Part shown: positions 1-27,370 of the stretch, in pieces
Position numbering within the stretch: the first letter of the stretch is position 1
Layout: every line of letters begins with the position of its first letter
The notes under the pieces: generated by a model
Seen by the model: the letters and a program-made list of their open reading frames with translations, nothing else
What the model was told of the DNA's origin: nothing
The model's database searches: none
Assembly: GCA_965224465.1 (NCBI GenBank)
Contig: OZ245049.1
Span: 4,050,001-4,082,000 of the forward strand
Length of the DNA stretch: 32,000 bases
Direction of reading: 5' to 3'
Source: Flavobacteriaceae bacterium
GTDB taxonomy: Bacteria > Bacteroidota > Bacteroidia > Flavobacteriales > Flavobacteriaceae
Translations under genes and position numbers: made by a program

Positions 1-930
1 AAGATATCTGGTGTTATAGATATTGTACAGGTAAAATGTAAAGGAGGAACTACAGGAAGTTTGGATCTAAGTATTACAGGAGGAACAGGAACATATACTT
101 ATGTATGGTCTTCTAGCAATGTAGATTTGACATCTTATACAATAACCGACCAAGATTTAATAGGTGTTCCAGCAGGTTCGTATAAAGTAACCATTAAGGA
201 TGGTAACAATTGTGAAAAAGAAGTCACAGCAGAAATTACTGAACCTGAGACTAGTGTTGAAATCTCAAATGTAGAAACGGTTAAGGAATCGTGTTCAAAT
301 TGTGAAGATGGAAAAATAATTGTGACTGCAACAGGAGGGACAGGGTCTTATGTGTATAGTATTGATAATGGGGTGACTAGACAAGAAGAAAATATATTTA
401 CAGCATTGTCTCCAGGGAAGTATAAAGTTACAGTATATGATGCAAATGGATGTTTCGCGAGTGAAGAAGATGTTGAAATTATAGAGGATTTGGCACCAGA
501 TTACAAGCCTGTAATTTATGCAAATAATGTAATTATAAAAGAAAATGGTGCTGTTGATTTAGCGATACTAGTGATTGAGTTATTGGGGAATGATTCCAAT
601 GGTACTACAGATGTAGAATTAATCATTAATAAAGGAGCTAGTTACTCTTTAGGAATGGATCCGAATCTAAGCCATTTGAATGGAAAAACACTGGATAATT
701 CTAATTGGAGATTGGATGATTCACATCCGTCTTTATACAGATTTATTTACACAGGAAATAACGGTATATATAATGGGAACTTGGCTAGTTTTATTGGGGT
801 TTCATTGACTGTTACTGCTCCAAATCAATCGGGTGATCTACCGATAGGAGTTACGGTAAGATTTGGTTCGGGAGGAGAAATAAGGACGGACAATAATACA
901 GATTCAGAAAATATTAAATACACGAAATAA
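1..930 (+). CDS. C-terminal part of a large SprB-repeat cell-surface protein (5-prime end lies upstream of the window)
   Basis: Frame 1 is open from nt 1, with no stop before the TTG at 61 listed in the ORF track. Stop TAA at 928-930. Two Cys-bounded modules carry the SprB-repeat signature (KCKGGTTGSLDLSITGGTGTYTYVW...GSYKVTIKDGNNC and CSNCEDGKIIVTATGGTGSYVYSI...GKYKVTVYDANGC). The last ~150 aa form a beta-rich tail ending ...SENIKYTK, with no recognisable T9SS type A or type B sorting domain. Confidence 0.75.
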   Translation, partial: KISGVIDIVQVKCKGGTTGSLDLSITGGTGTYTYVWSSSNVDLTSYTITDQDLIGVPAGSYKVTIKDGNNCEKEVTAEITEPETSVEISNVETVKESCSNCEDGKIIVTATGGTGSYVYSIDNGVTRQEENIFTALSPGKYKVTVYDANGCFASEEDVEIIEDLAPDYKPVIYANNVIIKENGAVDLAILVIELLGNDSNGTTDVELIINKGASYSLGMDPNLSHLNGKTLDNSNWRLDDSHPSLYRFIYTGNNGIYNGNLASFIGVSLTVTAPNQSGDLPIGVTVRFGSGGEIRTDNNTDSENIKYTK

Positions 931-937: not shown

Positions 938-3900
938 ATGAAAAAGAATATCATTTTATTGATTTTTGGAATATGCTTAAGCGCAATATCTGGGTTTGCT
1001 CAGGATGCAGTTATTCAGATTTCTGACGGATCATTATCTCCAGATCCTTTGGCTACGGTTGAAGAAGGAGGGACGGGGGTAATTAAGTTTAGTTGGGTTG
1101 AAACAGGAGGGTATAAACCAATACCTCCTAATGTAGGAACCTTGGTAAATGTAACAATGAGTCTAGAGATGCAAAATCTAGAATTGACAGATTTGGATGT
1201 TAGTAAAATTACAGGTACCGGCTTAGCGTATTTCAGACCTGTCTATTTTGATTATGGAAATTCAAAAGGAATCCTTTTTGAGCAAATTAAAGAAATTCCC
1301 CCTTTTGGGTATGGGACATTTGAAATCCCATTCACGGTTATTGGGAATTCTATAAAAGGAGAGAATGAAAATGGTTTTACTGCCAATATTCAGGCTGTTG
1401 GAAATGTTACTGCAAATGGTTATACAGGTGCATATACATATACCTTATGTAAACCTGTATTGTTGTCAGTAGGTAATATAACGTGTAATGCACAAGGATA
1501 TAATGTTGGGTTTACTACCGATGCTTCTTCTGTATCAGTAGTTGAAGGTGTTGGAACTGTGAATTTATCTGAAGGAACAATTACAGGGATTCCCTTAGGA
1601 AAAGACATCACCGTAAAAGCAACCAATGCAGGAGGCTGTAGTACTTTAATAGAAGTAAAAGGGCCTTTAACCTGCCCTGATTCTTGTGTACAACCGAATT
1701 TAATTATTGGACAACCTGTGTGTGCTCCATCAGATAGTTATAAAGTTATTTTAAGTGAGACCACAGGAGCTACTTTAAGCACAAGTGCAGGTTCTATTGT
1801 AAATAATATATTAATAGTACCTATTGCAAGTAGTCAAGTAACAATCACTGCCACCAATGGTGCTTGTGTACAATCATTAACAGTGTTCGCTCCTGTAGAT
1901 TGTAGCACAGCTTGTGCTGAACCTGGATTTTCTTTGGCAGGAATTGACTGTGCTACGGATATGAGCGGTGATTATGTAATTAATTTTACGGTTGCAGAAG
2001 GTGCTTCTGTAACTGTAAATAAAGGAATAGTAGATCTTGCCGCAGGAACCATTACCGTTCCAAGTTTGGATGGAGCTGTTGAGATTACAGCGAAGTCTTC
2101 AGCTTCTTGTGATCCTCATGTTTTAACGATTGATGCGCCAGATTGTGTCGCTGATATTGATATTAAAAAGTCAAGCGATCAAACATCATATACACCAGGG
2201 CAAACAGCAACATATACTATTGTTGTAACTAATAAAGGACCTCTGGATGCTACAAATATTAAAGTAACAGACCCTTTGCCTGCTGGAATAACAGAAATGA
2301 CTTGGACTAGTCCAACCTCTTCTGGAACTGGAGCTTTAAATGAAAATTTATCATTGACTTCTGGTGAGTCAGCTAGTTACACAGTTGTATTGACAGTTCC
2401 TTTTGATTTTAGAGGAGACTTAACGAACGTTGCCAATGCAGTAGATCCTGATAAACCTGATCCTGTACCTTGTACGGACTGTAAAGAAACATTACCAATT
2501 GGAGGTATAGCAGATATTACGACATTGAAAACGGATAGTAGTGATACATTTACTTTAGGGGAATCTATAACCTATACAATTACCGTGTCTAATAGTGGAC
2601 CAGTAGCTTCTGATAATGTGTCTGTAAAAGATACAGCACCAACAGGAACTACAATAAGTTCTTGGTCAGGGAACGGGAATAGTGGAACAGGGAATTTGGA
2701 TGATATAATTACGAGCTTGGCAGTTGATCAGACGGTTACTTACACTGTTGTAGTAGCTGTTCCATCTGATTATTCTGGAGAAACTCTTAGTAATGTTGTA
2801 ACGATTGTTACGCCATCTACTGTAGATCCAACACCAAGTTGTACCGGATGTACAGATACGAATACTAAAGATACTGACGGAGACGGAATTCCAGACAGCG
2901 TAGATTTAGACGATGATAACGATGGTATTTTAGATACCGTAGAAATCGCAACATCCACCAATGGAGGAGATACTGATGGCGATGGGATACCAGATCATTT
3001 AGACTTAGATTCAGACAATGATGGAATCCTAGATGTTGAAGAATCAGGAAATCAATCACAAGACGTTGATAACAATGGTCGTGTAGACGGTCCTTTTGGA
3101 GACAATGGATTTGACGATGATTTAGAAACAGCAACTGATAGTGGAGAAGCTAAAAACAAGCCAACAGATACTGACGGAGATGGAACACCAGATTTCCAAG
3201 ATGTAGATTCAGACAATGATGGGATTAGTGACCTTGTAGAAGGAGGAACAGATCCAGCATTGGATGCGGATAATGACGGAAGAATAGACGCAACAACAGA
3301 TACAGATAACGATGGAATCATAGACACAGTAGACCCTACAATTTCGGGGAGTACAGTGGCTACCACACCAGACACAGATAAGGATGGTGTTCCAGATTAC
3401 CAAGATTTAGATTCAGATAACGATGGTATCAATGATGTAGTTGAAGGAGGTTTACCAGATGAAGATGGAGACGGGCAAGTAGATGAAGAAGGTAAGTTAA
3501 CAGACAATGCTAATTTACCAGACACAGATAACAACGGTACACCAGATGTATTAGAACCAAACAATCCAGACTTAACGGACGAACAAGATCCTGATGGCAA
3601 TGGTACTGTAGAGGGAACGGATACAGATGGCGATGGGATACCAGATTTAATAGATGGTGATAAGGATCATTTTGGAGATGCTAAAGATACTGACGGAGAC
3701 GGAATTCCAGACAGCGTAGATTTAGACGATGATAACGATGGTATTTTAGATACCGTAGAAATCGCAACATCCACCAATGGAGGAGATACTGATGGCGATG
3801 GGATACCAGATCATTTAGACTTAGATTCAGACAATGATGGAATCCTAGATGTTGAAGAATCAGGAAATCAATCACAAGACGTTGATAACAATGGTCGTGT

Positions 3901-6900
3901 AGACGGTCCTTTTGGAGACAATGGATTTGACGATGATTTAGAAACAGCAACTGATAGTGGAGAAGCTAAAAACAAGCCAACAGATACTGACGGAGATGGA
4001 ACACCAGATTTCCAAGATGTAGATTCAGACAATGATGGGATTAGTGACCTTGTAGAAGGAGGAACAGATCCAGCATTGGATGCGGATAATGACGGAAGAA
4101 TAGACGCAACAACAGATACAGATAACGATGGAATCATAGACACAGTAGACCCTACAATTTCGGGGAGTACAGTGGCAACCACACCAGACACAGATAAGGA
4201 TGGTGTTCCAGATTACCAAGATTTAGATTCAGATAACGATGGTATCAATGATGTAGTTGAAGGAGGTTTACCAGATGAAGATGGAGACGGACAAGTAGAT
4301 GAAGAAGGTAAGTTAACAGACAATGCTAATTTACCAGATGAAGACGGGGATGGCATTGCAGATTTTAGAGAACCAAACAATCCAGACTTAACGGACGAAC
4401 AAGATCCTGATGGCAATGGCGTTGTAGAGGGAACGGATACAGATGGCGATGGGATACCAGATTTAATAGATGGTGATAAAGATAATTTTGGAGATGCTAA
4501 AGATACTGACGGAGACGGAATTCCAGACAGCGTAGATTTAGATGATGATAACGATGGTATTTTAGATACCGTAGAAATCGCAACATCCACCAATGGAGGA
4601 GATACTGATGGCGATGGGATACCAGATCATTTAGATTTAGATTCAGACAATGATGGAATATTAGATGTTGAAGAATCAGGAAATCAATCACAAGACGTTG
4701 ATAACAATGGTCGTGTAGACGGTCCTTTTGGAGACAATGGATTTGATGATGATTTAGAAACAACAACCGATAGTGGAGAGGCTAAAAACAAGCCAACAGA
4801 TACTGACGGAGATGGAACACCAGACTTCCAAGATGTAGATTCAGACAATGATGGGATTAGTGACCTTGTAGAAGGAGGAACAGATCCAGCATTGGATGCG
4901 GATAATGACGGAAGAATAGACGCAACAACAGATACAGATAACGATGGAATCATAGACACAGTAGACCCTACAATTTCGGGGAGTACAGTGGCTACCACAC
5001 CAGACACAGATAAGGATGGTGTTCCAGATTACCAAGATTTAGATTCAGATAACGATGGTATCAATGATGTAGTTGAAGGAGGTTTACCAGATGAAGATGG
5101 AGACGGGCAAGTAGATGAAGAAGGTAAGTTAACAGACAATGCTAATTTACCAGACACAGATAACAACGGTACACCAGATGTATTAGAACCAAACAATCCA
5201 GACTTAACGGACGAACAAGATCCTGATGGCAATGGTACTGTAGAGGGAACGGATACAGATGGCGATGGGATACCAGATTTAATAGATGGTGATAAGGATC
5301 ATTTTGGAGATGCTAAAGATACTGACGGAGACGGAATTCCAGACAGCGTAGATTTAGACGATGATAACGATGGTATTTTAGATACCGTAGAAATCGCAAC
5401 ATCCACCAATGGAGGAGATACTGATGGCGATGGGATACCAGATCATTTAGACTTAGATTCAGACAATGATGGAATCCTAGATGTTGAAGAATCAGGAAAT
5501 CAATCACAAGACGTTGATAACAATGGTCGTGTAGACGGTCCTTTTGGAGACAATGGATTTGACGATGATTTAGAAACAGCAACTGATAGTGGAGAAGCTA
5601 AAAACAAGCCAACAGATACTGACGGAGATGGAACACCAGATTTCCAAGATGTAGATTCAGACAATGATGGGATTAGTGACCTTGTAGAAGGAGGAACAGA
5701 TCCAGCATTGGATGCGGATAATGACGGAAGAATAGACGCAACAACAGATACAGATAACGATGGAATCATAGACACAGTAGACCCTACAATTTCGGGGAGT
5801 ACAGTGGCTACCACACCAGACACAGATAAGGATGGTGTTCCAGATTACCAAGATTTAGATTCAGATAATGATGGTATCAATGATGTAGTTGAAGGAGGTT
5901 TATCAGATGAAGATGGAGACGGGCAAGTAGATGAAGAAGGTAAGTTAACAGACAATGCTAATTTACCAGACACAGATAACAACGGTACACCAGATGTATT
6001 AGAACCAAACAATCCAGACTTAACGGACGAACAAGATCCTGATGGCAATGGCGTTGTAGACGGAACGGATACAGATGGCGATGGGATACCAGATTTAATA
6101 GATGGTGATAAAGATAATTTTGGAGATGCTAAAGATACTGACGGAGACGGAATTCCAGACAGTGTTGATTTAGACGATGATAATGATGGTATTTTAGATA
6201 CCGTTGAAATCGCAACATCCACCAATGGAGGAGATACTGATGGCGATGGGATACCAGATCATTTAGACTTAGATTCAGACAATGATGGAATCCTAGATGT
6301 TGAAGAATCAGGAAATCAATCACAAGACGTTGATAACAATGGTCGTGTAGACGGTCCTTTTGGAGACAATGGATTTGACGATGATTTAGAAACAGCAACC
6401 GATAGTGGAGAAGCTAAAAACAAGCCAACAGATACTGACGGAGATGGAACACCAGACTTCCAAGATGTAGATTCAGACAATGATGGGATTAGTGACCTTG
6501 TAGAAGGAGGAACAGATCCTGCATTGGATGCGGATAATGACGGAAGAATAGACGCAACAACAGATACAGATAACGATGGAATCATAGACACAGTAGACCC
6601 TACAATTTCGGGAAGTACAGTGGCTACCACACCAGACACAGATAAGGACGGTGTTCCAGATTACCAAGATTTAGATTCAGATAATGATGGTATCAATGAT
6701 GTAGTTGAAGGAGGTTTACCAGATGAAGATGGAGATGGGCAAGTAGATGAAGAAGGTACGTTGACAGACAATGCTAATTTACCAGACACAGATAACAACG
6801 GTACACCAGATGTATTAGAACCAAACAATCCAGACTTAACGGACGAACAAGATCCTGATGGCAATGGCGTTGTAGACGGAACGGATACAGATGGCGATGG

Positions 6901-9721
6901 GATACCAGATTTAATAGATGGTGATAAAGATAATTTTGGAGATGCTAAAGATACTGACGGAGACGGAATTCCAGACAGCGTAGATTTAGATGATGATAAC
7001 GATGGTATTTTAGATACCGTAGAAATCGCAACATCCACCAATGGAGGAGATACTGATGGCGATGGGATACCAGATCATTTAGATTTAGATTCAGACAATG
7101 ATGGGGTATTAGATGTTGAAGAATCAGGAAATCAATCACAAGACGTTGATAACGATGGTCGTGTAGACGGTCCTTTTGGAGACAATGGATTTGACGATGA
7201 TTTAGAAACAGCAACTGATAGTGGAGAAGCTAAAAACAAGCCAACAGATACTGACGGAGATGGAACACCAGACTTCCAAGATGTAGATTCAGACAATGAT
7301 GGGATTAGTGACCTTGTAGAAGGAGGAACAGATCCAGCATTGGATGCAGATAATGACGGAAGAATAGACGCAACAACAGATACAGATAACGATGGAATCA
7401 TAGACACAGTAGACCCTACAATTTCGGGGAGTACAGTGGCAACCACACCAGACACAGATAAGGATGGTGTTCCAGATTACCAAGATTTAGATTCAGATAA
7501 CGATGGTATCAATGATGTAGTTGAAGGAGGTTTACCAGACGAAGATGGAGACGGACAAGTAGATGAAGAAGGTACATTGACAGACAACACTAATTTACCT
7601 GATGAAGACGGTGATGGCATTGCAGATTATATTGAACCAAACAATCCAGACTTAACGGATGAGCAAGATCCTGATGGTGATGGTATTGTAGAGGGAACGG
7701 ATACAGATGGCGATGGGATACCAGATTTAATAGATGGAGATGTACATAATTTTGGAGACGGTAAAGATACTGACGGTGATGGATCACCAGACAGCGTAGA
7801 TTTAGATGATGATAACGATGGTATTTTAGATACCGTAGAAATCGCAACATCCACCAATGGAGGAGATACTGATGGCGATGGGATACCAGATCATTTAGAT
7901 TTAGATTCAGACAATGATGGAATATTAGATGTTGAAGAATCAGGAAATCAATCACAAGACGTTGATAACGATGGTCGTGTAGACGGTCCTTTTGGAGACA
8001 ATGGATTTGATGATGATTTAGAAACAACAACCGATAGTGGAGAGGCTAAAAACAAGCCAACAGATACTGACGGAGATGGAACACCAGACTTCCAAGATGT
8101 AGATTCAGACAATGATGGGATTAGTGACCTTGTAGAAGGAGGAACAGATCCAGCATTGGATGCAGATAATGACGGAAGAATAGACGCAACAACAGATACA
8201 GATAACGATGGAATCATAGATGCAGTAGACCCTACAATTTCGGGAAGTACAGTGGCAACCACACCAGACACAGATAAGGATGGTGTTCCAGATTACCAAG
8301 ATTTAGATTCAGATAACGATGGTATCAATGATGTAGTTGAAGGAGGTTTACCAGACGAAGATGGAGACGGACAAGTAGATGAAGAAGGTACATTGACAGA
8401 CAATACTAATTTACCTGATGAAGACGGTGATGGCATTGCAGATTATATTGAACCAAACAATCCAGACTTAACGGATGAGCAAGATCCTGATGGTGATGGT
8501 ATTGTAGAGGGAACGGATACAGATGGCGATGGGATACCAGATTTAATAGATGGAGATGTACATAATTTTGGAGACGGTAAAGATACTGACGGTGATGGAT
8601 CACCAGACAGCGTAGATTTAGATGATGATAACGATGGTATTTTAGATACCGTAGAAATCGCAACATCCACCAATGGAGGAGATACTGATGGCGATGGGAT
8701 ACCAGATCATTTAGACTTAGATTCAGACAATGATGGGATATTAGATATAGAGGAATCTAGCAATGGAGGAGAAGATACGGATGGAGACGGACGTGTAGAT
8801 GGTCCTTATGGATCGAACGGGTTTGCAGATGCATTAGAAAGTTCTCCAGATAGTGGAGTTGCCAAGGACGAACCAGTAGATACTGACGGAGATGATATAC
8901 CAGACTTCCAAGATGTAGATTCAGACAATGATGGAATTTCAGATTTAGTAGAAGGAGGGAGTGATCCCGCTTTAGATACTAATAATGACGGAATGATAGA
9001 CTCTAAAATTGATACAGATAAAGACGGAATCATAGATGCTGTGGATCCAACAATTACAGGGAGTACAGTAGCAACTACACCAGACACAGATGGAGAAGGT
9101 GTGGATGATTATAGAGATTTGGATTCAGACAATGATGGCTTAAATGATATTGATGAAACAAACTTAAAAGATCAAGATGGAGATGGTCAGGTAGATGCTC
9201 AAGGTGATTTAGCAGATAATTCAAATTTACCAGATGAAGACGGAGATGGTATTCCAGATTATTTAGAGCCAAACAATCCGGATTTGACATCTATTTTAGA
9301 TGCTGATGGAGATGGAGTTGTGGATGGAGAAGATTCAGATGGTGATGGAATTATTGATGATGTAGATAATTTACCAGGAGAGTTTGGAGATGGCCCAACC
9401 GATGTGGCTGGAGCTACGACCATTGTGAATTCATTTACGCCAAATGATGATGGGAAGAACGATACGTTTGTGATCACTAATTTACAGAGTATTGCACCTA
9501 ATTTTTCTATGGAAATTAGAAATAGGTATGGAAATAGTGTTTACGAATATCAGCATGGAGGCGATAAAGATAAGGAGCCAAGATGGTGGGATGGTTATTC
9601 AAGTGGACGAATGACATTACAAAGTTCAAAAAAATTACCAGTTGGAACGTATTTCTATGTGTTAAAATACAACGACGGGAAAACGGAAGCTGTAACAGGA
9701 TGGATTTACTTAAATAGATAA
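938..9721 (+). CDS. Giant (2,927 aa) T9SS-secreted, Asp-rich adhesin-like protein: signal peptide, four-Cys modules, two DUF11-like domains, 8 x 272-aa thrombospondin-type-3-like repeat units, T9SS type B C-terminal domain
   Basis: ATG at 938, 7 nt after the upstream stop. N-terminal signal peptide MKKNIILLIFGICLSAISGFAQD. One uninterrupted 8.8-kb ORF. DxDxDGxxD calcium-loop motifs recur throughout aa 644-2819. The C-terminus matches the gliding-motility-associated / T9SS type B CTD signature (FTPNDDGKNDTF...IRNRYGNSVYE...WDG...GTYFYVLKY...GWIYLNR). Confidence 0.9.
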   Translation: MKKNIILLIFGICLSAISGFAQDAVIQISDGSLSPDPLATVEEGGTGVIKFSWVETGGYKPIPPNVGTLVNVTMSLEMQNLELTDLDVSKITGTGLAYFRPVYFDYGNSKGILFEQIKEIPPFGYGTFEIPFTVIGNSIKGENENGFTANIQAVGNVTANGYTGAYTYTLCKPVLLSVGNITCNAQGYNVGFTTDASSVSVVEGVGTVNLSEGTITGIPLGKDITVKATNAGGCSTLIEVKGPLTCPDSCVQPNLIIGQPVCAPSDSYKVILSETTGATLSTSAGSIVNNILIVPIASSQVTITATNGACVQSLTVFAPVDCSTACAEPGFSLAGIDCATDMSGDYVINFTVAEGASVTVNKGIVDLAAGTITVPSLDGAVEITAKSSASCDPHVLTIDAPDCVADIDIKKSSDQTSYTPGQTATYTIVVTNKGPLDATNIKVTDPLPAGITEMTWTSPTSSGTGALNENLSLTSGESASYTVVLTVPFDFRGDLTNVANAVDPDKPDPVPCTDCKETLPIGGIADITTLKTDSSDTFTLGESITYTITVSNSGPVASDNVSVKDTAPTGTTISSWSGNGNSGTGNLDDIITSLAVDQTVTYTVVVAVPSDYSGETLSNVVTIVTPSTVDPTPSCTGCTDTNTKDTDGDGIPDSVDLDDDNDGILDTVEIATSTNGGDTDGDGIPDHLDLDSDNDGILDVEESGNQSQDVDNNGRVDGPFGDNGFDDDLETATDSGEAKNKPTDTDGDGTPDFQDVDSDNDGISDLVEGGTDPALDADNDGRIDATTDTDNDGIIDTVDPTISGSTVATTPDTDKDGVPDYQDLDSDNDGINDVVEGGLPDEDGDGQVDEEGKLTDNANLPDTDNNGTPDVLEPNNPDLTDEQDPDGNGTVEGTDTDGDGIPDLIDGDKDHFGDAKDTDGDGIPDSVDLDDDNDGILDTVEIATSTNGGDTDGDGIPDHLDLDSDNDGILDVEESGNQSQDVDNNGRVDGPFGDNGFDDDLETATDSGEAKNKPTDTDGDGTPDFQDVDSDNDGISDLVEGGTDPALDADNDGRIDATTDTDNDGIIDTVDPTISGSTVATTPDTDKDGVPDYQDLDSDNDGINDVVEGGLPDEDGDGQVDEEGKLTDNANLPDEDGDGIADFREPNNPDLTDEQDPDGNGVVEGTDTDGDGIPDLIDGDKDNFGDAKDTDGDGIPDSVDLDDDNDGILDTVEIATSTNGGDTDGDGIPDHLDLDSDNDGILDVEESGNQSQDVDNNGRVDGPFGDNGFDDDLETTTDSGEAKNKPTDTDGDGTPDFQDVDSDNDGISDLVEGGTDPALDADNDGRIDATTDTDNDGIIDTVDPTISGSTVATTPDTDKDGVPDYQDLDSDNDGINDVVEGGLPDEDGDGQVDEEGKLTDNANLPDTDNNGTPDVLEPNNPDLTDEQDPDGNGTVEGTDTDGDGIPDLIDGDKDHFGDAKDTDGDGIPDSVDLDDDNDGILDTVEIATSTNGGDTDGDGIPDHLDLDSDNDGILDVEESGNQSQDVDNNGRVDGPFGDNGFDDDLETATDSGEAKNKPTDTDGDGTPDFQDVDSDNDGISDLVEGGTDPALDADNDGRIDATTDTDNDGIIDTVDPTISGSTVATTPDTDKDGVPDYQDLDSDNDGINDVVEGGLSDEDGDGQVDEEGKLTDNANLPDTDNNGTPDVLEPNNPDLTDEQDPDGNGVVDGTDTDGDGIPDLIDGDKDNFGDAKDTDGDGIPDSVDLDDDNDGILDTVEIATSTNGGDTDGDGIPDHLDLDSDNDGILDVEESGNQSQDVDNNGRVDGPFGDNGFDDDLETATDSGEAKNKPTDTDGDGTPDFQDVDSDNDGISDLVEGGTDPALDADNDGRIDATTDTDNDGIIDTVDPTISGSTVATTPDTDKDGVPDYQDLDSDNDGINDVVEGGLPDEDGDGQVDEEGTLTDNANLPDTDNNGTPDVLEPNNPDLTDEQDPDGNGVVDGTDTDGDGIPDLIDGDKDNFGDAKDTDGDGIPDSVDLDDDNDGILDTVEIATSTNGGDTDGDGIPDHLDLDSDNDGVLDVEESGNQSQDVDNDGRVDGPFGDNGFDDDLETATDSGEAKNKPTDTDGDGTPDFQDVDSDNDGISDLVEGGTDPALDADNDGRIDATTDTDNDGIIDTVDPTISGSTVATTPDTDKDGVPDYQDLDSDNDGINDVVEGGLPDEDGDGQVDEEGTLTDNTNLPDEDGDGIADYIEPNNPDLTDEQDPDGDGIVEGTDTDGDGIPDLIDGDVHNFGDGKDTDGDGSPDSVDLDDDNDGILDTVEIATSTNGGDTDGDGIPDHLDLDSDNDGILDVEESGNQSQDVDNDGRVDGPFGDNGFDDDLETTTDSGEAKNKPTDTDGDGTPDFQDVDSDNDGISDLVEGGTDPALDADNDGRIDATTDTDNDGIIDAVDPTISGSTVATTPDTDKDGVPDYQDLDSDNDGINDVVEGGLPDEDGDGQVDEEGTLTDNTNLPDEDGDGIADYIEPNNPDLTDEQDPDGDGIVEGTDTDGDGIPDLIDGDVHNFGDGKDTDGDGSPDSVDLDDDNDGILDTVEIATSTNGGDTDGDGIPDHLDLDSDNDGILDIEESSNGGEDTDGDGRVDGPYGSNGFADALESSPDSGVAKDEPVDTDGDDIPDFQDVDSDNDGISDLVEGGSDPALDTNNDGMIDSKIDTDKDGIIDAVDPTITGSTVATTPDTDGEGVDDYRDLDSDNDGLNDIDETNLKDQDGDGQVDAQGDLADNSNLPDEDGDGIPDYLEPNNPDLTSILDADGDGVVDGEDSDGDGIIDDVDNLPGEFGDGPTDVAGATTIVNSFTPNDDGKNDTFVITNLQSIAPNFSMEIRNRYGNSVYEYQHGGDKDKEPRWWDGYSSGRMTLQSSKKLPVGTYFYVLKYNDGKTEAVTGWIYLNR
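1448..2146 (+). other. Three tandem four-cysteine modules (~76-78 aa each) in the head region of the giant protein
   Basis: Cys residues at aa 171/183/234/246, 250/262/310/322 and 326/338/391/403. This is C-x11-C-x47..52-C-x11-C three times, with 3-residue linkers. Each module also shares a G-x-I-T / ITV-x-A core. Confidence 0.7.
2150..2866 (+). other. Two DUF11-like (conserved repeat domain) Ig-like modules
   Basis: TYTIVVTNKGPLDATNIKVTDPLPAGIT and TYTITVSNSGPVASDNVSVKDTAPTGTT are the typical DUF11 core. Each module ends in a P-x-P-x-C-T-x-C motif (PDPVPCTDC, PTPSCTGC). Confidence 0.6.
2867..9394 (+). repeat. In-frame tandem array, 8 units x 816 bp (272 codons)
   Basis: The string aaagatactgacgg recurs at 2867, 3683, 4499, 5315, 6131, 6947, 7763 and 8579. 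Antisense shadow ORFs in the supplied track recur at exactly +816 (2865, 3681, 4497, 5313, 6129, 6945). Units 1-7 differ by scattered substitutions. Unit 8 diverges from about nt 8745. Confidence 0.95.
9422..9718 (+). other. Region encoding the T9SS type B (gliding-motility-associated) C-terminal sorting domain
   Basis: IVNSFTPNDDGKNDTFVITN...MEIRNRYGNSVYEY...RWWDGYSSG...LPVGTYFYVLKYNDGKTEAVTGWIYLNR, at the extreme C-terminus and immediately upstream of a PorP/SprF gene. Confidence 0.85.
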
Positions 9722-9775: not shown

Positions 9776-10699
9776 ATGAAAAGATTTAGTGAGATAATTT
9801 TAGTAGTGGGCGTATTCCTATTTAGTGTTTTAGCTAAGGCGCAGCAGGATCCACAATACACACAGTATATGTATAATATGAATGTCATAAACCCAGCATA
9901 TGCAGGTTCTCAAGGAACTTTAAGTATAGGTCTGTTGTACAGAACTCAATGGGTAGGGTTTGAAGGAGCGCCGAAAACAGTTACGGCTTCTATCAATGCA
10001 CCTGTTGGTAGAAATGTTGGATTAGGATTTACTGCGATAGCCGATGAAATAGGCCCTGTAAAGGAGCAGAATATATATGCAGATTTTTCATATACAATAA
10101 ACACCTCGGATGTCGGTCGTTTGGCATTTGGTATAAAAGGTGGGGCAACTTTTCAGCGAATAGATTTTCAAGGATTGACTACAGTAGAGAAAGAAGATCC
10201 ACTGATTGATGTAAATAACTTGAATGAAATTTATCCGAACGTGGGAGCAGGAGTGTTTTATTACGCAGAACGCTTTTACGCAGGGGTATCGATCCCTAAT
10301 ATTTTAGAGACGCGTTATTTTGAAAAAAATGGAGGTGCGATAAGTAAGGCATCGGAAAAAATGCATTACTTTTTTACAACAGGTTATGTATTTGATTTAT
10401 CAGAAAGTTTAAAGTTTAAGCCTTCAATGTTGGTAAAAGCTGCAACGGGAGCTCCAGTTTCAATTGATTTGTCGGGAAATGTTTTAATTCATGAGAAAAT
10501 AGAATTGGGATTGTCTTATAGGTTGGATGATTCTGTGAGTGCTATCATAAGTTTATTTGTGCAACCAAATTTCAGAATTGGATATGCGTATGATTATACA
10601 ACTTCAAATTTAGGAGATTACAATTCAGGAAGTCACGAGATCATGTTACATTATAATATTGATAATTCACGTCAAGGGAAATCACCTAGATTCTTTTAA
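9776..10699 (+). CDS. PorP/SprF-family type IX secretion system outer-membrane protein
   Basis: Signal peptide followed by the family-defining N-terminal motif AQQDPQYTQYMYNMNVINPAYAG. About 300 aa of beta-barrel-like sequence ending in ...SPRFF. Located directly downstream of a type B CTD cargo gene, as for sprB-sprF. Confidence 0.9.
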   Translation: MKRFSEIILVVGVFLFSVLAKAQQDPQYTQYMYNMNVINPAYAGSQGTLSIGLLYRTQWVGFEGAPKTVTASINAPVGRNVGLGFTAIADEIGPVKEQNIYADFSYTINTSDVGRLAFGIKGGATFQRIDFQGLTTVEKEDPLIDVNNLNEIYPNVGAGVFYYAERFYAGVSIPNILETRYFEKNGGAISKASEKMHYFFTTGYVFDLSESLKFKPSMLVKAATGAPVSIDLSGNVLIHEKIELGLSYRLDDSVSAIISLFVQPNFRIGYAYDYTTSNLGDYNSGSHEIMLHYNIDNSRQGKSPRFF

Positions 10700-10710: not shown

Positions 10711-12294
10711 ATGAAAAAATTGTTACTATTATTAGTGTGCCTAGGTGTTCAAATTACGTATGCACAAAACGAAGAACGTTATACGATAAGAAATATAGAG
10801 GCGAATAATAAATATTCAAATTTTGGAACTTCTTATTATGGTTCAAACCAAATTGTATTTGCATCTCCTCAAAAAAGAAGTTTTGTGATACAAAATAATT
10901 GGAAGCCAAACGGACAACCATTTTTAGACTTGTTTATCGGAGATATGACTCCTAGTGGAGAGATTGAAAATGTGAAGAAGTTTTCTGGAAAATTAAACAC
11001 CAAATGGCATGAGGCAGATGTTGTGTTTAGCAAAGATGGGAATACAGTTTATTTTACACGAAGCAATTATTTTAATGGCAAGTACGGAAAGGATAAAGAA
11101 GGTGTAAATAACTTAAAATTATTTAAAGCAGTTGTTGGCACTAAAGGAGAATGGAATGGTATTGAGTCTGTTCATTTTAATAGTGATGCCTACTCGGTGG
11201 GACATCCAGCCTTATCTTTAGATGGGAAAACACTGTATTTTATTTCGGACATGCCAGGGAGTATCGGTAAGACAGATATTTTTAAAGTCTCTGTTTCTAG
11301 TAATGGAACTTTGGGAGTTCCTACGAATTTAGGAGAGCATATCAATACGCCTGGAAGAGAAATGTTTCCTTTTATAGGAGCAGACCAAGTGTTGTATTTT
11401 GCATCAGATAGCAGGGCAGAAGGCTTGGGAGGTTTAGATATTTACCGTTCCGATCTAAAAGGGGGGACTCCAGTAAATTTAGGGGTACCCATCAATAGTG
11501 TAAATGATGATTTCGCTTTTATTTTTAATACAAAAAAGAAGAGTGGATATTTTTCATCCAATCGTAAAGGAGGAAAAGGAGACGATGATATTTATTATTT
11601 CACAGACAATCAAGAGGTGTCAAAAAAATGTAAGCAAGCAATTAGTGGAGTCGTTTTAGATAGAAGCACTCGGGAAAAGATACCGTATGCACTTGTTGAA
11701 ATATTAGAGAAAGGAAGTACTATTAAATCAATTCAGACGGAGAGTAATGCTAAATTTGCATTCCAGGCAGATTGTGAGAAAACGTATAAAATAGTGGGAG
11801 TGAAAAAAGGATATGAAAATTATAGCATTGTTTTCGATACTACAGACGATCCTAATTTAAAAATACGATTGAACTTAGATTTGGATAAAGAGCGTGGTGA
11901 CTTTGTAGTAACACCAGAGCGTACAATAATCAATATTAATCCTATTTATTTTGATTTTGATAAGTGGAATATACGTTCAGACGCAGCATTTGAATTAAAT
12001 AAAGTGGTATCTGTGATGCTACAATATCCGCAACTTAAGATAGAAGGCACATCACATACAGACAGTCGAGGAAGAGATAGCTACAATCAACAATTGTCAC
12101 AAAAAAGAGCACAGTCTACCGTTGATTATATTATTAGTAGAGGGATTTCTTCTGCTCGGATTTATGCAAAAGGCTATGGAGAATATCAGTTGACAAATCA
12201 ATGTTCAAATAATGTAAAATGTTCTGAAAGAGAGCATCAGTTAAATCGTAGAACTGAATTTGTAGTGTTGAATCCAGGGTTTATAAATAGATAA
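10711..12294 (+). CDS. OmpA-family peptidoglycan-binding protein with TolB-like (PD40/WD40-like) beta-propeller repeats and a CarboxypepD_reg-like domain
   Basis: Signal peptide MKKLLLLLVCLGVQITYAQ. Repeated S-x-DG-x-x-LYF-x-S...G-x-x-DIY motifs (FSKDGNTVYFTRS, LSLDGKTLYFISD...TDIFKV, LYFASD...GLDIYRS, GDDDIYYF). The C-terminal OmpA-like domain has NPIYFDFDKWNIR...SHTDSRG...YNQQLSQKRAQSTVDYI...NRRTEFVV. Confidence 0.9.
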   Translation: MKKLLLLLVCLGVQITYAQNEERYTIRNIEANNKYSNFGTSYYGSNQIVFASPQKRSFVIQNNWKPNGQPFLDLFIGDMTPSGEIENVKKFSGKLNTKWHEADVVFSKDGNTVYFTRSNYFNGKYGKDKEGVNNLKLFKAVVGTKGEWNGIESVHFNSDAYSVGHPALSLDGKTLYFISDMPGSIGKTDIFKVSVSSNGTLGVPTNLGEHINTPGREMFPFIGADQVLYFASDSRAEGLGGLDIYRSDLKGGTPVNLGVPINSVNDDFAFIFNTKKKSGYFSSNRKGGKGDDDIYYFTDNQEVSKKCKQAISGVVLDRSTREKIPYALVEILEKGSTIKSIQTESNAKFAFQADCEKTYKIVGVKKGYENYSIVFDTTDDPNLKIRLNLDLDKERGDFVVTPERTIININPIYFDFDKWNIRSDAAFELNKVVSVMLQYPQLKIEGTSHTDSRGRDSYNQQLSQKRAQSTVDYIISRGISSARIYAKGYGEYQLTNQCSNNVKCSEREHQLNRRTEFVVLNPGFINR

Positions 12295-12854: not shown

Positions 12855-13730
12855 ATGAAGGGAATACTCTTGGCAGGAGGTCATGGAACACGATTGTACC
12901 CTGTAACAAAAGGAACGTCAAAACAGTTATTGGCAATTTACGATAAGCCAATGGTTTATTATCCGTTATCAGTATTAATGCAAGCAGGTATATCAGAGGT
13001 TCTGATTATTTCTACTCCGAAGGATTTGGATAGTTTTAGGCATTTGTTCGGTGATGGTTCTTCGTTGGGGATGCAGTTTTCTTATATAGAGCAGCCCTCT
13101 CCTGATGGATTAGCACAAGCATTTATACTTGGTGAATCTTTTATTGGTGATGATGATGTCTGCTTGGTGTTGGGAGATAATATTTTCCACGGAGAAGGAT
13201 TGACTAAGTTGATCGAGAATGCTGTTTTAAATGTTGAACAATATCAAAAGGCAAGTGTATTTGGGTATTATGTAAGTGAACCTGAAAGATATGGTGTAGC
13301 CGAATTTGATAGTCAAAATACAGTAGTAAGTATTGAAGAGAAACCGAAATTCCCTAAAAGTAATTATGCTGTTGTAGGGCTTTATTTTTATCCAAATTCA
13401 GTAGTTAGCGTTGCAAAAACAATCACGCCTAGTGAACGTGGAGAATTGGAAATAACAAGTGTAAATCAACATTATTTATGCCAAGGAGCATTGAAGATGG
13501 AAATTATGGGACGTGGCTATGCTTGGTTGGATACTGGAACTCATGACTCTCTTTTAGAAGCCGCTAATTTTGTGCAGACAATTGAAAAAAGACAAGGGTT
13601 GAAAATTGCGTGTCTTGAAGAAATAGCTTTTAATAGAGGTTGGATCGATAAAAAACAATTAGTCATGATTGCAGAACCAATGAAAGCAACTCCCTATGGT
13701 CAGTATTTATTAAAATTGACCGATAGCTAA
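12855..13730 (+). CDS. rfbA: Glucose-1-phosphate thymidylyltransferase
   Basis: Canonical RmlA N-terminus [46 protein letters not shown], plus [14 protein letters not shown] and [16 protein letters not shown]. Length 291 aa. Confidence 0.95.
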
Positions 13731-13776
13731 TCCCTAATAATACCAAATACATTTTCAAGTGACGGTTTAGAAATAG

Positions 13777-13810
13777 AATAAACTATTTATATCGGTCATT
13801 TTGGATTTTA
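13777..13810 (+). repeat. Partial third copy (core only) of the intergenic element, copy B
   Basis: aataaactatttatatcggtcattttggatttta shares the ~29-nt core with copies A and C but lacks their 5-prime 40 nt. Confidence 0.7.
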
Positions 13811-13847
13811 ATAGGCAGTATAGCTAGGCGAATAATCTAAGGATATC

Positions 13848-13927
13848 CTCAGCTATCGTTCTATTTTTTAACAATGCTAGAATGTAAAACAAACTATTTA
13901 TATCGGTCGTTTTGGATTGTAGTTGGT
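13848..13927 (+). repeat. 80-bp intergenic element, copy C (between rfbA and rfbC)
   Basis: Direct-orientation repeat of 12531-12610 (72/80 identical, no gaps). It ends 20 nt before the rfbC start codon. Confidence 0.85.
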
Positions 13928-13946
13928 CTAACACTCATTAAGAAAT

Positions 13947-14519
13947 ATGAAATTTATAAAAAGTGCTATTCCGGATGTAATTATTTGTGAACCAACAGTT
14001 TTTGGGGATCACCGTGGTTATTTTATGGAATCTTTTAAACAAGAAGAATTGAATGTGTATTTAGGTTTTAATGTCAATTTTATCCAAGATAACGAGTCCA
14101 TGTCTACTTTTGGTGTTCTAAGAGGGATGCATTTTCAAAAAGGGATGCATTCACAGTCTAAATTAGTACGTGTAGTTTCTGGAAAGGTACTGGATGTGGT
14201 TGTAGATTTAAGAACAGATAGTGCGACATTTAAACACGTATTTTCTATTGAACTGTCGGCAGAAAATAAACGACAATTATTTGTGCCAAAAGGATTTGCT
14301 CATGGCTATGTAGTATTGAGTGATGTTGCGGTTTTCCAGTATAAAATAGACGCCCTTTATTCTCCTGAAAACGAATCTGGTTTTAGGTATAATGATCCCG
14401 TATTGAATATTGATTGGAAAGTGTTACCAAAAGATATTGTTGTTTCGGAGAAAGATAGGGAGCAATCAAGTTTTAATAATACGTCGTTTTTCACGAGTTC
14501 AAAAGATTTATATGTATAA
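13947..14519 (+). CDS. rfbC: dTDP-4-dehydrorhamnose 3,5-epimerase
   Basis: IPDVIICEPTVFGDHRGYFMESF, VLRGMHFQ, KLVRVVSGKVLDVVVDLR and FVPKGFAHGY are hallmark RmlC cupin motifs. Length 190 aa. Confidence 0.95.
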   Translation: MKFIKSAIPDVIICEPTVFGDHRGYFMESFKQEELNVYLGFNVNFIQDNESMSTFGVLRGMHFQKGMHSQSKLVRVVSGKVLDVVVDLRTDSATFKHVFSIELSAENKRQLFVPKGFAHGYVVLSDVAVFQYKIDALYSPENESGFRYNDPVLNIDWKVLPKDIVVSEKDREQSSFNNTSFFTSSKDLYV

Positions 14520-15381
14520 TATTCTTGTTACTGGAGCAGCAGGGCAGTTGGGGACATGTATTGCTGATTGTAGGGATGATAAACAAGGGGATCGTTATTT
14601 TTTTGTAAGCAAACAGGTCGTTGATATTGCTGATTTGGAAGCGCTTTTTAGCTACTGTCAAAAGCATCAGATAGATGTTATTATCAATTGTGCCGCTTAT
14701 ACAAAGGTTGATCAAGCAGAATCCGAGGTAGAACTTGCTTATAGCATCAATCAAGAAGGTGCAAAAAATGTTGCTATTGTAGCGAAAAAATTAGCTTGTA
14801 AACTCATTCATATTTCTACGGATTATGTATTTGAAGGAAAAGGAACAACCGCTTTTAAGGAAGATGGTTTTACAGATCCTGTAACAGTATACGGAAAAAG
14901 TAAATTGGCGGGCGAATTGGAAATCAAGGAGGTGAATCCGTCTAATTCTCTTATTATTAGGACTTCTTGGTTGTACTCAGAATACGGATCTAATTTTTTG
15001 TTGACGATGCTGCGTTTGGCTCGTGAGAAGAAATTAATTTCTGTGGTTGACGACCAACATGGGTGTCCTACCTATGCAAAAGATTTGGCAACTGTTATTC
15101 TAGGAATTATCCCTGTATTGTCTGCGGATAATGTAAAGGTGTATCATTTTTCAAATAAAAATCCCACTACTTGGTATTTTTTTGCTGAGAAAATAATAAA
15201 AACAGTGTCGGATGACTTAAAGCTTGTCCCTATAAAAACAAGTGCGTTTATTACAGTAGCTAAACGACCTGTTTATAGTGTCTTAGATTGTACACGTATA
15301 AAAAAAGACTTTGCTGTTACAATTAGATCATGGGAAATTGCGTTAGAAGAATGTCTAGCTAATTTATGGAGGTCTTCGTAG
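14512..15381 (+). CDS. rfbD: dTDP-4-dehydrorhamnose reductase
   Basis: Start moved from the listed TTG at 14410 to the ATG at 14512, giving MYNILVTGAAGQLG (Rossmann GxxGxxG at the N-terminus). This start overlaps the rfbC stop in ATGTATAA. STDYVF and YGKSK (YxxxK) catalytic motifs are present. Confidence 0.9.
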   Translation: MYNILVTGAAGQLGTCIADCRDDKQGDRYFFVSKQVVDIADLEALFSYCQKHQIDVIINCAAYTKVDQAESEVELAYSINQEGAKNVAIVAKKLACKLIHISTDYVFEGKGTTAFKEDGFTDPVTVYGKSKLAGELEIKEVNPSNSLIIRTSWLYSEYGSNFLLTMLRLAREKKLISVVDDQHGCPTYAKDLATVILGIIPVLSADNVKVYHFSNKNPTTWYFFAEKIIKTVSDDLKLVPIKTSAFITVAKRPVYSVLDCTRIKKDFAVTIRSWEIALEECLANLWRSS

Positions 15382-15494
15382 GTAAATAAGAGTATTGAGA
15401 CCTTGTATTTTAGGTATTGATATTGAGTTAGTTGAGGTAATAGATGTTCTTGTCTCTTTTAAAAATGATGACAAGGCTAAATATGATAAGCGGG

Positions 15495-16499: not shown

Positions 16500-16501
16500 A
16501 T

Positions 16502-17452: not shown

Positions 17453-17688
17453 GACTTGTTGTTGTGGGATTTAGTTAGTGGTAAAGGCTAACGGTTTTAG
17501 CTGTACAAATCACGAGTTCTCAATGAAAAAAACAGAGAAACAACTCAATGTTTGGAATGTTTTATGTAGTTTTACCGAACAAAAGAACAGGGGGTTTTGA
17601 CTGCTCAAAATGGGGTTTTTAAAGATAACGAAAAGCATCTTTTTAGATGTTTGCTATTTAGAAAAAATTGAATAGAAATATAAAAAAC

Positions 17689-18195
17689 ATGAATTGGTTT
17701 GCCCTATATACTGCCCCTAGAGCGGAGAAAAAAGTATTAGAGAGGCTTGAAAAAGAAGGGTACATTGTATATTTGCCCTTGTTGTCAACAATAAAGCAAT
17801 GGAGTGATCGAAAGAAAAAGGTGGAAGTTCCTTTAATTTCTTCCTATGTTTTTATTCAAATTGATTCCTTGTCTTTACAAAAAGTAAGGGCTATTTTTGG
17901 TGTTGTGGGCGTATTAAATTTTCTCGGAAAACCAGCAATTGTTAAGGATGTTGAAATTAATAATTTAAGAATTTTATTAAGAGAAAATAATGCTATTAAA
18001 TTATTAAAAGATGTACGAATTCCTAAAGGAACACCTGTCCAAGTAGTAAAAGGACAAATGACAGGTGTAATTGGTGAAATGGTACATTACAAAGGGAAAA
18101 TTAAAGTAATTGTCCGTGTGGAAGCATGTGGCACATTAGTTGATGTAGAGGTGCCTTTGTCTTTTGTAGAGGAGATAAAGGAAAATAAAGAATAA
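17689..18195 (+). CDS. UpxY-family (NusG-like) transcription antiterminator
   Basis: The ATG at 17689 is preferred over the TTG at 17668. NGN domain WFALYTAPRAEKKVLERLEKEGYIVYLPL...KKVEVPLISSYVFIQ. C-terminal KOW-like GTPVQVVKGQMTGVIGEMV. Preceded by a 236-nt gene-free leader. Confidence 0.8.
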   Translation: MNWFALYTAPRAEKKVLERLEKEGYIVYLPLLSTIKQWSDRKKKVEVPLISSYVFIQIDSLSLQKVRAIFGVVGVLNFLGKPAIVKDVEINNLRILLRENNAIKLLKDVRIPKGTPVQVVKGQMTGVIGEMVHYKGKIKVIVRVEACGTLVDVEVPLSFVEEIKENKE

Positions 18196-18306
18196 AAGAA
18201 ATAAAGCTGTTGAGGTAACAATCAATAGTTTTTGTGATATATAAGCATAATATTGTTGTTAGTTCATCGCTAAGATGTGACTGACCGTGGCGAAGCCGTG
18301 AAAAGA

Positions 18307-27363: not shown

Positions 27364-27370
27364 GTTAAAT

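Follow-up and report, generated by a model that had tools for sequence, protein, structure and literature searches.

A giant gene and its neighbours

Near the left end of the DNA studied here (32,000 nucleotides in all, which we call the window) lies a gene for a protein of 2,927 amino acids, and most of that protein is a run of tandem units carried between an N-terminal portion and a C-terminal sorting domain. The gene follows the end of another giant gene and is itself followed by two genes whose products resemble PorP/SprF and PorE. All of these features, listed here with their parts, are on the forward strand.

1..930, +: C-terminal end of a giant SprB-repeat protein (Pfam SprB repeat, 64 bits), running past the left edge of the window
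938..9721, +: gene for the 2,927-aa protein (open reading frame list and translation)
938..1000, +: predicted Sec signal peptide, MKKNIILLIFGICLSAISGFA, followed by QD (read from the sequence; conserved at the N-termini of homologues)
1001..2152, +: N-terminal head, Cys-containing, predicted by AlphaFold2 as about four beta-sandwich (Ig-like) domains
2153..2866, +: two DUF11/CLIPPER domains (PF01345, 109 bits in 2 stretches, residues 406-513 onward; TIGR01451, 88.7 bits)
2867..8578, +: units 1-7 of an 816-bp (272-aa) tandem array, homogenised (92.5-99% nucleotide identity)
8579..9394, +: unit 8, a conserved terminal unit type (first 158 nt near-identical to unit 7, the remainder about 70% identical to units 1-7)
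9395..9721, +: type B C-terminal sorting domain for type IX secretion (the T9SS; CHU_C / TIGR04131) with the stop codon (PF13585, TIGR04131)
9776..10699, +: outer-membrane protein of the PorP/SprF family, presumably the cargo's own shuttle and anchor (PF11751, 310 bits; TIGR03519, 302 bits, cutoff 90.55)
10711..12294, +: PorE-like protein with a PD40 beta-propeller, CarboxypepD_reg and a peptidoglycan-binding OmpA_C domain (Pfam OmpA, PD40, CarbopepD_reg_2)

The mature protein has a computed mass of about 300 kDa, and its net charge is close to -694. For its N-terminal 384 residues AlphaFold2 gave an all-beta model (pLDDT 74.8); no Pfam family matched this head, and for it Foldseek gave nothing more specific than multi-Ig ectodomains, pilins, intimin and CBM3b, all of them generic matches with E values no better than 1e-4. 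DUF11/CLIPPER is a stalk domain in fibrillar adhesins (PMC12617251), and the combination by which such adhesins are recognised, stalk domains together with a cell anchor, is present here as two DUF11/CLIPPER domains and the C-terminal domain. That last domain scores 82.9-87.5 bits with PF13585 (cutoff 27; residues 2828-2925) and 43.1 bits with TIGR04131 of NCBIfam (cutoff 35). Pfam found neither SprB repeats (PF13573) nor RTX nonapeptide repeats (PF00353) in the 2,927-aa protein. An RTX/T1SS adhesin was rejected, given the lack of RTX repeats and the presence of the T9SS domain; SprB itself was rejected for want of the repeats that mark it (PF13573), and so was a phage or mobile element, to which nothing points.

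The upstream SprB-repeat gene stops 7 nt before position 938, and the same neighbour stands 7 nt upstream of the orthologue at a related locus, L001. In the product of 1..930 no T9SS C-terminal domain was detected, and no NCBIfam model matched it; as an SprB-repeat protein, it leaves a link with gliding possible. On the other side, the PorP/SprF-like gene starts 54 nt downstream of the giant gene. The PorE-like protein scores 300.9 bits against NF052230 (T9SS_PorE), with an equivalog cutoff of 600 and profile positions 1-140 missing, and 396 bits against NF053607, again below the equivalog cutoff and starting at profile position 141. On these profile scores we take the product of 10711..12294 to be a paralogue-level PorE match, like that described for Fjoh_3950. 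The order of cargo gene, PorP/SprF gene and OmpA gene recurs at 20 or more related loci from metagenomes, and also at loci L005, L085, L086 and L087.

Two broader scans added little: an Rfam search of the whole window gave no match, and a scan for sigma-70 promoters and terminators stayed at or below shuffle expectation, the sigma-70 model being in any case not applicable to Bacteroidota promoters. Antisense reading frames of 107, 126 and 146 aa recur with the repeat; they matched no family and were rejected as by-products of codon bias.

Seven internal units and one terminal unit

A first-pass annotation of this DNA had described eight in-frame 816-bp units making up about three quarters of the 2,927-codon gene, and so it proved. 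Tandem Repeats Finder was blank on the array, because its longest period is 500, and we have relied instead on a repeat search of the window, which gave an exact 816-bp spacing across 8 copies (starting at 2862/2866), and on a register-based comparison, in which the 20-nt unit start falls at 2867 + 816n for 8 of 8 units. The array spans 2867-9394 with zero indels and lies in frame, (2867-938) mod 3 being 0; it accounts for 6,528 of the 8,784 nt of the reading frame at 938..9721, or 74%. Gain or loss of a whole unit would thus keep the frame, as the same annotation had said, and the long direct repeats that it named as substrates for recombination are indeed there: exact repeats within the array run from 496 to 983 nt, the longest at a lag of two units, and chance cannot yield such a length.

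Among units 1-7, pairwise nucleotide identity is 92.5-99.0%, with 74 variable sites. The differences had been called scattered substitutions. Substitutions they are, and nothing else, but they are not all scattered: there is also a clustered cassette at unit nt 656-686, common to units 2, 6 and 7, and there are variant patches common to non-adjacent units, for example 3 and 7. Unit 8 is 75.5-77.8% identical to units 1-7. Its divergence is as real as had been claimed, although the first difference specific to it comes at nt 8737 (unit index 158) and not at about 8745.

What, then, is unit 8? It had been taken for a decayed edge copy at the end of an array undergoing concerted evolution. Concerted evolution of the internal units fits well, since these are 93-100% identical in amino acids within the gene, whereas the figure falls to 75% between internal units here and one of the relative NORP167; the internal units were homogenised within the present lineage. 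Decay of unit 8 does not fit. Unit 8 is not decayed. It is 83-85% identical in amino acids to the terminal unit of three relatives (83.5% for the terminal unit of NORP167), with a dN/dS of about 0.25 against the internal units. It is an old and conserved terminal type, and the C-terminal domain and the partner PorP are conserved to the same degree. The two unit types, internal and terminal, are older than speciation. Among the modules dN/dS is 0.09-0.39, with 36 variable codons that differ only synonymously as compared with 22 that change an amino acid, and the modules are under purifying selection. We regard the array as a well-resolved case of a homogenised run with a protected terminal unit.

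The mechanism that we would propose is as follows. Unequal crossing-over and gene conversion would keep the internal modules near-identical, and this homogenisation would let modules be gained or lost 816 bp at a time without a shift of frame, while the terminal module beside the sorting domain would escape it and stay conserved between species. Such change in copy number may continue in the present day, to judge from the properties of the sequence and the variation seen at the level of the family.

That variation calls for some care. The closest sequences found are 69% identical at the N-terminus and 84% at the C-terminus; scanning genomes with the N-terminus turned up three loci and no more, of which the best was the one 69% identical, on a chimeric contig, and only two homologues of the full-length type were found. 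Exact-sequence matching with the giant protein, PorP, OmpA and RmlA gave no hit in any collection covered. The relatives are marine or subseafloor metagenome-assembled genomes (MAGs). Assemblies GCA_002400885.1, GCA_002401105.1 and GCA_016764435.1 are among the relatives. The comparison of unit number at related loci that had been asked for gives 1 to 5 near-complete modules against 8 in this assembly, which is variation at the family level among relatives that include no close strains. Locus L009 has five units in tandem, 272-278 aa apart; the single unit at L085 could be a collapse. Among the relatives' short-read contigs, four ends fall within the array or at its edge, and a fifth contig is a chimera whose join lies just upstream, which bears out the earlier warning that short-read assemblers fail on arrays of this kind. 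For this family, therefore, the number of modules counted in a MAG-derived protein is not to be trusted, the locus having been broken, misjoined or possibly collapsed by short-read assemblies, and the practical value of the present analysis lies mostly in annotation and assembly.

Calcium-loop motifs in the module

Of the residues in each 272-aa unit, 28% are Asp and none is Cys, and the unit contains 15 calcium-loop motifs of the DxDxDG type. Over the array as a whole 33% of residues are acidic, Asp-rich DxDxDGxxDxxD loops are spaced every 12-20 residues, and the 119 DxDxDG motifs of the protein are confined to it. In its 2,176 residues the array has not a single cysteine, so that the cysteines of eukaryote-type thrombospondin type 3 repeats are not found.

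Recognition by profile was uneven. Pfam gave no match on the whole unit even at E = 1, presumably through the composition filter of HMMER, and short segments were needed to bring out TSP3_bac (PF18884), whose score on unit residues 1-61, in 4 stretches, is 34.4 bits (cutoff 25); TSP_3 (PF02412), at 21.5 bits, is below its cutoff of 25. Partial matches below threshold connect the array with the TSP3-containing BamM, MtsC and CglD models and with a TSP3-bearing OmpA structure (5wtl). From the motifs, the DxDxDG loops would be expected to load Ca2+. A single unit put through AlphaFold2, all 8 units serving as the alignment, gave a model too poor to use, with a pLDDT of 43.2 and no secondary structure; without Ca2+ the array region may be disordered. 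A rod-like array, a "stalk" as one is tempted to call it, is a conjecture that is not supported by any model.

The loops are grouped into a conserved 272-aa higher-order module, and it is this module that is itself the repeat unit.

A proposed anchored spacer and the alternatives

We have tried to fit all of this into one account, to which we would give a probability of roughly 0.6: the array is the acidic spacer of a statically anchored T9SS type B surface protein in a marine bacterium of the Flavobacteriaceae, its internal modules recombining in 816-bp steps. The protein would be exported by Sec, as its signal peptide suggests, and would then cross the outer membrane via the T9SS, guided by the type B C-terminal domain. 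It would probably be handed over to the adjacent PorP/SprF-like protein, and probably be held on the cell wall by the PorP/SprF-like and PorE-like OmpA proteins together. In seawater the approximately 119 DxDxDG loops of the eight modules would be loaded with Ca2+, and the loaded array would serve as a spacer, projecting the DUF11/CLIPPER domains and the Ig-like head from the cell. Adhesion is the presumed function of the protein; in its head the Foldseek search brought out generic Ig-like folds and no recognisable adhesive domain. Repeat-built adhesin genes of this sort are well known, and the locus does not represent a new kind of system.

Static anchoring is suggested by what is known of two relatives in layout. 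In Flavobacterium johnsoniae the type B cargo Fjoh_3952, with the SprF-like Fjoh_3951 and the PorE-like Fjoh_3950, forms static surface foci only, and mobile cargoes have no PorE-like gene in their operon (PMC12618676). In Porphyromonas gingivalis a PorE-PorP-PG1035 complex has been demonstrated (PMC9143113), and in the published model PorP holds the cargo on the surface while PorE ties it to peptidoglycan (PMC12618676, PMC9143113). The locus studied here has the same layout as Fjoh_3952-3951-3950 and PG1035-PorP-PorE, a type B cargo followed by a PorP/SprF gene and a PorE-like OmpA gene, and the likeness is one of layout; most of the passenger here, however, is a homogenised TSP3-like array, and the PorE-like protein is without the N-terminal 140 or so positions of the PorE profile.

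Might the protein move instead? A type B domain and a PorP/SprF partner could load it onto the gliding track in the manner of SprB and SprF, with the array as a flexible shaft. The adjoining SprF-family gene would suit such a role, as would the giant SprB-repeat gene just upstream, syntenic in L001, and some type B cargoes of F. johnsoniae do travel on the gliding machinery (PMC12618676). Yet the protein itself is without SprB repeats and its operon has a gene for a PorE-like peptidoglycan-binding protein, and we consider a mobile gliding adhesin unlikely. We are just as doubtful of a quite different use of the array, as a polyanionic sink for cations: a surface layer with approximately 119 Ca2+ sites per molecule that captures or buffers Ca2+, Mg2+ or other metals, or that forms bridges to anionic polysaccharides and mineral particles, so that copy number would set capacity and not reach. 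The acidity of the array, the charge of the whole protein and the confinement of the DxDxDG motifs to the array would all be expected of a sink. The T9SS is, moreover, needed for Ca2+ acquisition in Cytophaga hutchinsonii, where the responsible cargo is unknown (PMC7906972). The lack of predicted secondary structure in the unit would also suit a sink. However, seawater holds about 10 mM Ca2+, and for marine or subseafloor organisms such as the relatives its capture should not be limiting; in the type 3 repeats of thrombospondin and COMP, as in known TSP3-type proteins generally, Ca2+ is structural; and the full layout of a fibrillar adhesin (head, CLIPPER stalk domains and anchor) is present.

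There is, finally, the sceptic's answer, that the array or its count of eight has been misjoined, over-expanded or collapsed in assembly. The exact repeats exceed short-read and most insert lengths, and the relatives' contigs, broken or chimeric at or just before the array, together with the possible collapse at L085, give reason for concern. We think this very improbable nonetheless, for no two of the eight units are identical and every one measures exactly 816 nt, the 8.8-kb reading frame runs through without an indel, and the variants, most of them synonymous, come in blocks that units have in common, which is not how errors of sequencing or consensus look. The same module also occurs in tandem in independent assemblies (e.g., L009), which argues for a real array, although not for the number 8.

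The proposed anchored spacer has parallels elsewhere. The giant T1SS adhesins MpIBP, LapA and SiiE use Ca2+-rigidified, near-identical repeats as an extender between the anchor and distal binding domains, and our protein, by analogy, would share that design logic with its own long, near-identical and putatively Ca2+-dependent run of repeats; it differs in using the T9SS and not the T1SS, in repeats that are not BIg folds and in having no RTX nonapeptides by Pfam. Type 3 repeats of thrombospondins (the calcium "wire" of eukaryotic TSP/COMP, and bacterial TSP3_bac in OmpA-like proteins, BamM, MtsC and CglD) share with the array the DxDxDGxxDxxD loops, for which PF18884 is above its cutoff. Eukaryotic type 3 repeats are disulfide-locked, whereas the array is without cysteines, and here the loops are organised in the 272-aa module that serves as the repeat unit.

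A further comparison is with the Periscope Proteins, which include SasG, Aap, Rib/alpha C, Sgo0707, Esp and certain inverse autotransporters (Whelan et al. 2021; review, PMC9704523). Like them, our protein would be one chain at the cell surface, its N-terminal head distal and its C-terminal anchor proximal, and it has tandem repeats that are highly identical and longer than 50 residues (here 8 x 272 aa), the DNA identity of which invites homologous recombination. The class is defined, however, by repeat-number variation between close strains, and here there are only the 1-5 modules among distant relatives. The unit is also larger (272 aa, as compared with about 50-165 aa) and is a bundle of 15 calcium loops where Periscope repeats have a stable globular fold, and the anchor is a T9SS type B domain in place of a sortase motif or a beta-barrel. 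With these differences in mind, the array suggests that T9SS type B cargoes in marine Bacteroidota may be a further case of the Periscope idea, and length variation, if true, would provide a simple handle, in 816-bp steps, on the distance from head to cell.

One can go further. The repeat type of the array is found in more than 1,400 representative proteins, and the 272-aa module with its 15 loops recurs at equal length in unrelated Bacteroidota proteins. It is conceivable, if distinctly improbable, that the 272-aa block is a discrete, conserved and Ca2+-organised structural module and not simply short TSP3-like loops in a row, which PorP/PorE-anchored T9SS type B cargoes use as an extender both adjustable in copy number and switchable by Ca2+, a Bacteroidota counterpart of the Periscope Proteins. 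Such a module might also link the T9SS with Ca2+ acquisition.

The 816-nt array and the history of its units

One very long reading frame in the window (938..9721, + strand, 2,927 aa) holds eight copies of one unit at an exact 816-nt spacing, the first placed at 2862/2866 by repeat search, and self-comparison at an 816-nt lag agrees, its periodicity coming on from ~2862-2880 and fading beyond ~8580. In the register 2867 + 816n, the units match the frame of the gene, with no indels across the array. The tandem, in-frame array that the first-pass annotation had described is confirmed, far beyond chance, and the "about three quarters" that it assigned to these units in a 2,927-codon gene computes to 74%. 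(Tandem Repeats Finder reported no array, solely because its longest period is 500.)

Pairwise, units 1-7 share 92.5-99.0% nucleotide identity, as against 75.5-77.8% with unit 8, whose first 158 nt match unit 7 almost perfectly; the divergence of this last unit had been rightly noted, although it starts at nt ~8737 rather than ~8745. Between neighbouring units the longest exact repeat is 496 nt; at lags of two and three units it is 983 and 556 nt, which bears out the earlier view of the array as a substrate for recombination. Units 1-7 do differ by substitutions (74 variable sites), but these are not only scattered, as had been claimed: a variant cassette at unit nt 656-686 (DTDNNGTPDV vs DEDGDGIADF/Y) is common to units 2, 6 and 7, a patch at unit nt 248-281 is common to units 3 and 7, and the 983-nt match joins the unit 1/2 junction with the unit 3/4 junction. 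Such a mosaic is the trace one would expect of gene conversion and unequal crossing-over. Synonymous change alone accounts for 36 of the variable codons, and another 22 carry an amino-acid change; pairwise dN/dS is 0.09-0.39, and the units are therefore under purifying selection in the + frame.

As to composition, array GC (2867-9394) is 0.41 against ~0.34-0.38 in the flanking kilobases, with an AT skew of ~+0.25, both because of Asp, Asn, Thr and Gly codon usage. Antisense ORFs lie over the array (one of 107 aa in each of units 1-7; others of 126-146 aa in certain units). The recurring ones match no family, Rfam has no match in the window, and the opposite strand codes for nothing, its ORFs arising from codon bias.

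What, then, is unit 8? It had been taken for a decayed edge copy, and comparison with loci in relatives' genomes (L005 and others) points elsewhere.

Amino-acid identity of units and adjoining sequences
Unit 8 and terminal units of L005, L085 and L086: 83-85%
C-terminal domain (CTD) and relatives: 81-86%
PorP and relatives: 78-86%
Unit 8 and internal units (1-7) of its own gene: 74-77%
Internal units and NORP167 internal unit: 75%
Internal units and NORP167 terminal unit: 72%

Unit 8 is thus a conserved positional orthologue of the relatives' terminal units and no decayed copy. From these identities it follows that the internal and terminal types are older than the split of the species compared, and that the internal type has been homogenised or re-amplified inside the window's lineage; in other words, concerted evolution, as first suggested, holds for the internal units, given their block-shared variants and their distance from NORP167. 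Type B signals can take in as much as ~235 aa ahead of the conserved domain (PMC12618676), so the terminal unit may owe its conservation to belonging to the signal for secretion and anchoring. Identity to relatives is 73-78% for the OmpA-like protein and only 53-64% for the N-terminal head (window 938-2866 vs L001, L004, L005, L085 and L086); set against the 78-86% of terminal unit, CTD and PorP, the head figure means that evolution is much faster at the distal end than at the anchoring one.

The encoded protein and its gene neighbourhood

Features of the repeat gene and its neighbours
1-930, + strand: C-terminal end of a giant SprB-repeat protein, whose stop codon precedes the ATG at 938 by 7 nt
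N-terminus of 938..9721, + strand: putative Sec-type signal peptide, read from sequence
After the signal peptide, + strand: head, ~384 aa, about four beta-sandwich domains (model pLDDT 74.8)
Between head and array, + strand: two DUF11 domains (109 bits)
Between DUF11 and sorting domains, + strand: repeat array
C-terminus, after the array, + strand: T9SS (type IX secretion) type B sorting domain (CHU_C 82.9 bits, TIGR04131 43.1 bits, both over cutoffs)
Starting 54 nt 3' of the repeat gene: PorP/SprF-family gene (310 bits)
11 nt after the PorP/SprF-family gene: PD40 + CarboxypepD_reg + OmpA_C gene (PorE profile 301 bits)
12855-26070: polysaccharide biosynthesis/export locus (RmlA, RmlC, RmlD, RmlB-like dehydratase, GFO/IDH oxidoreductase; NusG-like (UpxY-type) regulator, two UDP-glucose/GDP-mannose dehydrogenases, nucleotidyl transferase; Wza (Poly_export + SLBB) and Wzz)

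Each unit encodes 272 aa rich in Asp (27.6%) and Gly (13.6%), without Cys or Trp. It carries 15 DxDxDGxxD-type loops (119 across the array, zero elsewhere in the protein) and four copies, at 70-80% identity, of a 24-26-aa double loop, DTDGDGxPDxxDxDSDNDGIxDxxE, so the unit itself was assembled from older short repeats. Pfam gave no match to the whole unit; its first 61 aa match PF18884, the bacterial thrombospondin type 3 repeat (TSP3), at 34.4 bits (cutoff 25), and PF02412 at 21.5 bits, under its cutoff. NCBIfam adds partial, sub-threshold matches to the TSP3-bearing BamM, MtsC and CglD, and the sole solved structure matched by sequence is 5wtl, a TSP3-bearing OmpA-family protein. The AlphaFold2 model of one unit (pLDDT 43, no secondary structure) is unusable; such a score is compatible with a Ca2+-requiring fold or with disorder alike and settles nothing. 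The head resembles generic Ig-like ectodomains, pilins, intimin and a CBM3b, and nothing more specific. DUF11 was recently renamed CLIPPER and has been shown to serve fibrillar adhesins as a stalk domain stabilised by isopeptide bonds (PMC12617251).

The PorE-like protein scores below the equivalog cutoff and lacks the first 140 PorE profile positions. A 560-nt gap separates its gene from the unrelated polysaccharide locus, whose distal part (27000-32000) falls to 0.27-0.30 GC against 0.34-0.37 elsewhere outside the array.

A proposed surface protein and its rivals

Repeat gene, PorP/SprF-family gene and PorE-like gene form a cassette in that order, an arrangement already known from the literature for type B cargoes. 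Flavobacterium johnsoniae has five operons of type B cargo with PorP/SprF-like and PorE-like genes, and one such cargo, Fjoh_3952 (with SprF-like Fjoh_3951 and PorE-like Fjoh_3950), forms static surface foci only (PMC12618676). The sequence shows the gene content and order; that the repeat protein is secreted, anchored and Ca2+-loaded, and what its shape and adhesive role would be, we infer. By analogy with these operons, we propose a static surface protein with a Ca2+-loaded spacer. That is, T9SS would secrete the protein, the two partners encoded downstream would anchor it statically, and the eight modules would push the CLIPPER domains and the Ig-like head outward.

One might instead imagine a mobile gliding adhesin, since an SprB-repeat protein is encoded next door; the PorE-like gene argues against mobility, and we rate this reading lower. 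The SprB-repeat neighbour also accompanies the cassette in L001 (727-9993, 3,088 aa) and L085 (4675-9897, 1,740 aa). (No T9SS C-terminal domain was detected in the part of the SprB-repeat protein inside the window.) A cation sink would suit the extreme net charge (computed near -694 for a mature protein of ~300 kDa) and the unexplained requirement for T9SS in Ca2+ acquisition by C. hutchinsonii (PMC7906972), but the marine setting and the adhesin-like domain layout make it, too, less probable than a static surface protein.

Could the array be an assembly artefact? Short-read assemblers had been said to mishandle such arrays, and breakage there is evident among the closest relatives, with four contig ends falling at the array or within it: the L005 contig opens partway through a unit and breaks off 37 aa after entering the array of another paralogue, in tandem with the first, and in L086 and L087 the contig and its terminal unit begin together. 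In L001 (MAG contig NVRM01000057.1, 11750-12604), the second DUF11 domain passes, across an ambiguous base, into an unrelated nitrilase/C-N hydrolase-like gene, probably a chimeric join just before the expected array start. Collapse is one of two readings of the contig L085, which runs uninterrupted from DUF11 through one terminal-type unit to the CTD; the other is that the gene truly has a single unit. In the window, however, no two of the eight units are the same, all have a length of exactly 816 nt, no break interrupts the 8.8-kb frame, and the variants are shared in blocks and mostly synonymous. We argue that the array is real; its count of eight is provisional.

Relatives and known systems

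The repeat type of the 272-aa unit is extremely common: one unit as query retrieves 8,894 representative proteins at E <= 1e-3, a number that drops to 1,438 at E <= 1e-30, and many of these proteins span 2,000-7,000 aa and match in 10-35 stretches. In the collections searched, the nearest matches reach 69% at the N-terminus and 84% at the C-terminus, and exact look-ups of the repeat protein, PorP, OmpA and RmlA found no entry. Proteins of the wider family carry 1 to 5 near-complete 272-aa modules, against 8 here, with module identities from 54-66% (L009, spacing 272-278 aa) up to ~80% (L057, L068), and other loci show long-period, near-perfect DNA repeats of their own (666, 798, 1098 and 1677 bp).

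The idea put forward earlier, of a stalk that recombination between identical repeats lengthens or shortens, is the published concept of Periscope Proteins (PMC9704523); the window gene fits their sequence criteria, although the class is defined by observed between-strain variation, and its protein departs from the class in the size of its unit, its type of fold and its anchor. We class the protein as a candidate fibrillar adhesin of T9SS type B, linked to PorP/PorE, whose array is TSP3-like and homogenised. We think it quite unlikely that the 272-aa block forms a discrete, Ca2+-organised module serving Bacteroidota as a tunable extender, or that it connects T9SS with Ca2+ handling.

The PorP/SprF + OmpA cassette recurs in at least 20 retrieved loci. 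NORP167 appears to carry two in tandem at L005 (contig NVRM01000111.1, 1-7038), where a repeat-protein C-terminus, PorP and OmpA are followed by a second paralogue's N-terminus entering the same repeats, and its contig 7 (L087) holds a further repeat-protein C-terminus with PorP and OmpA.
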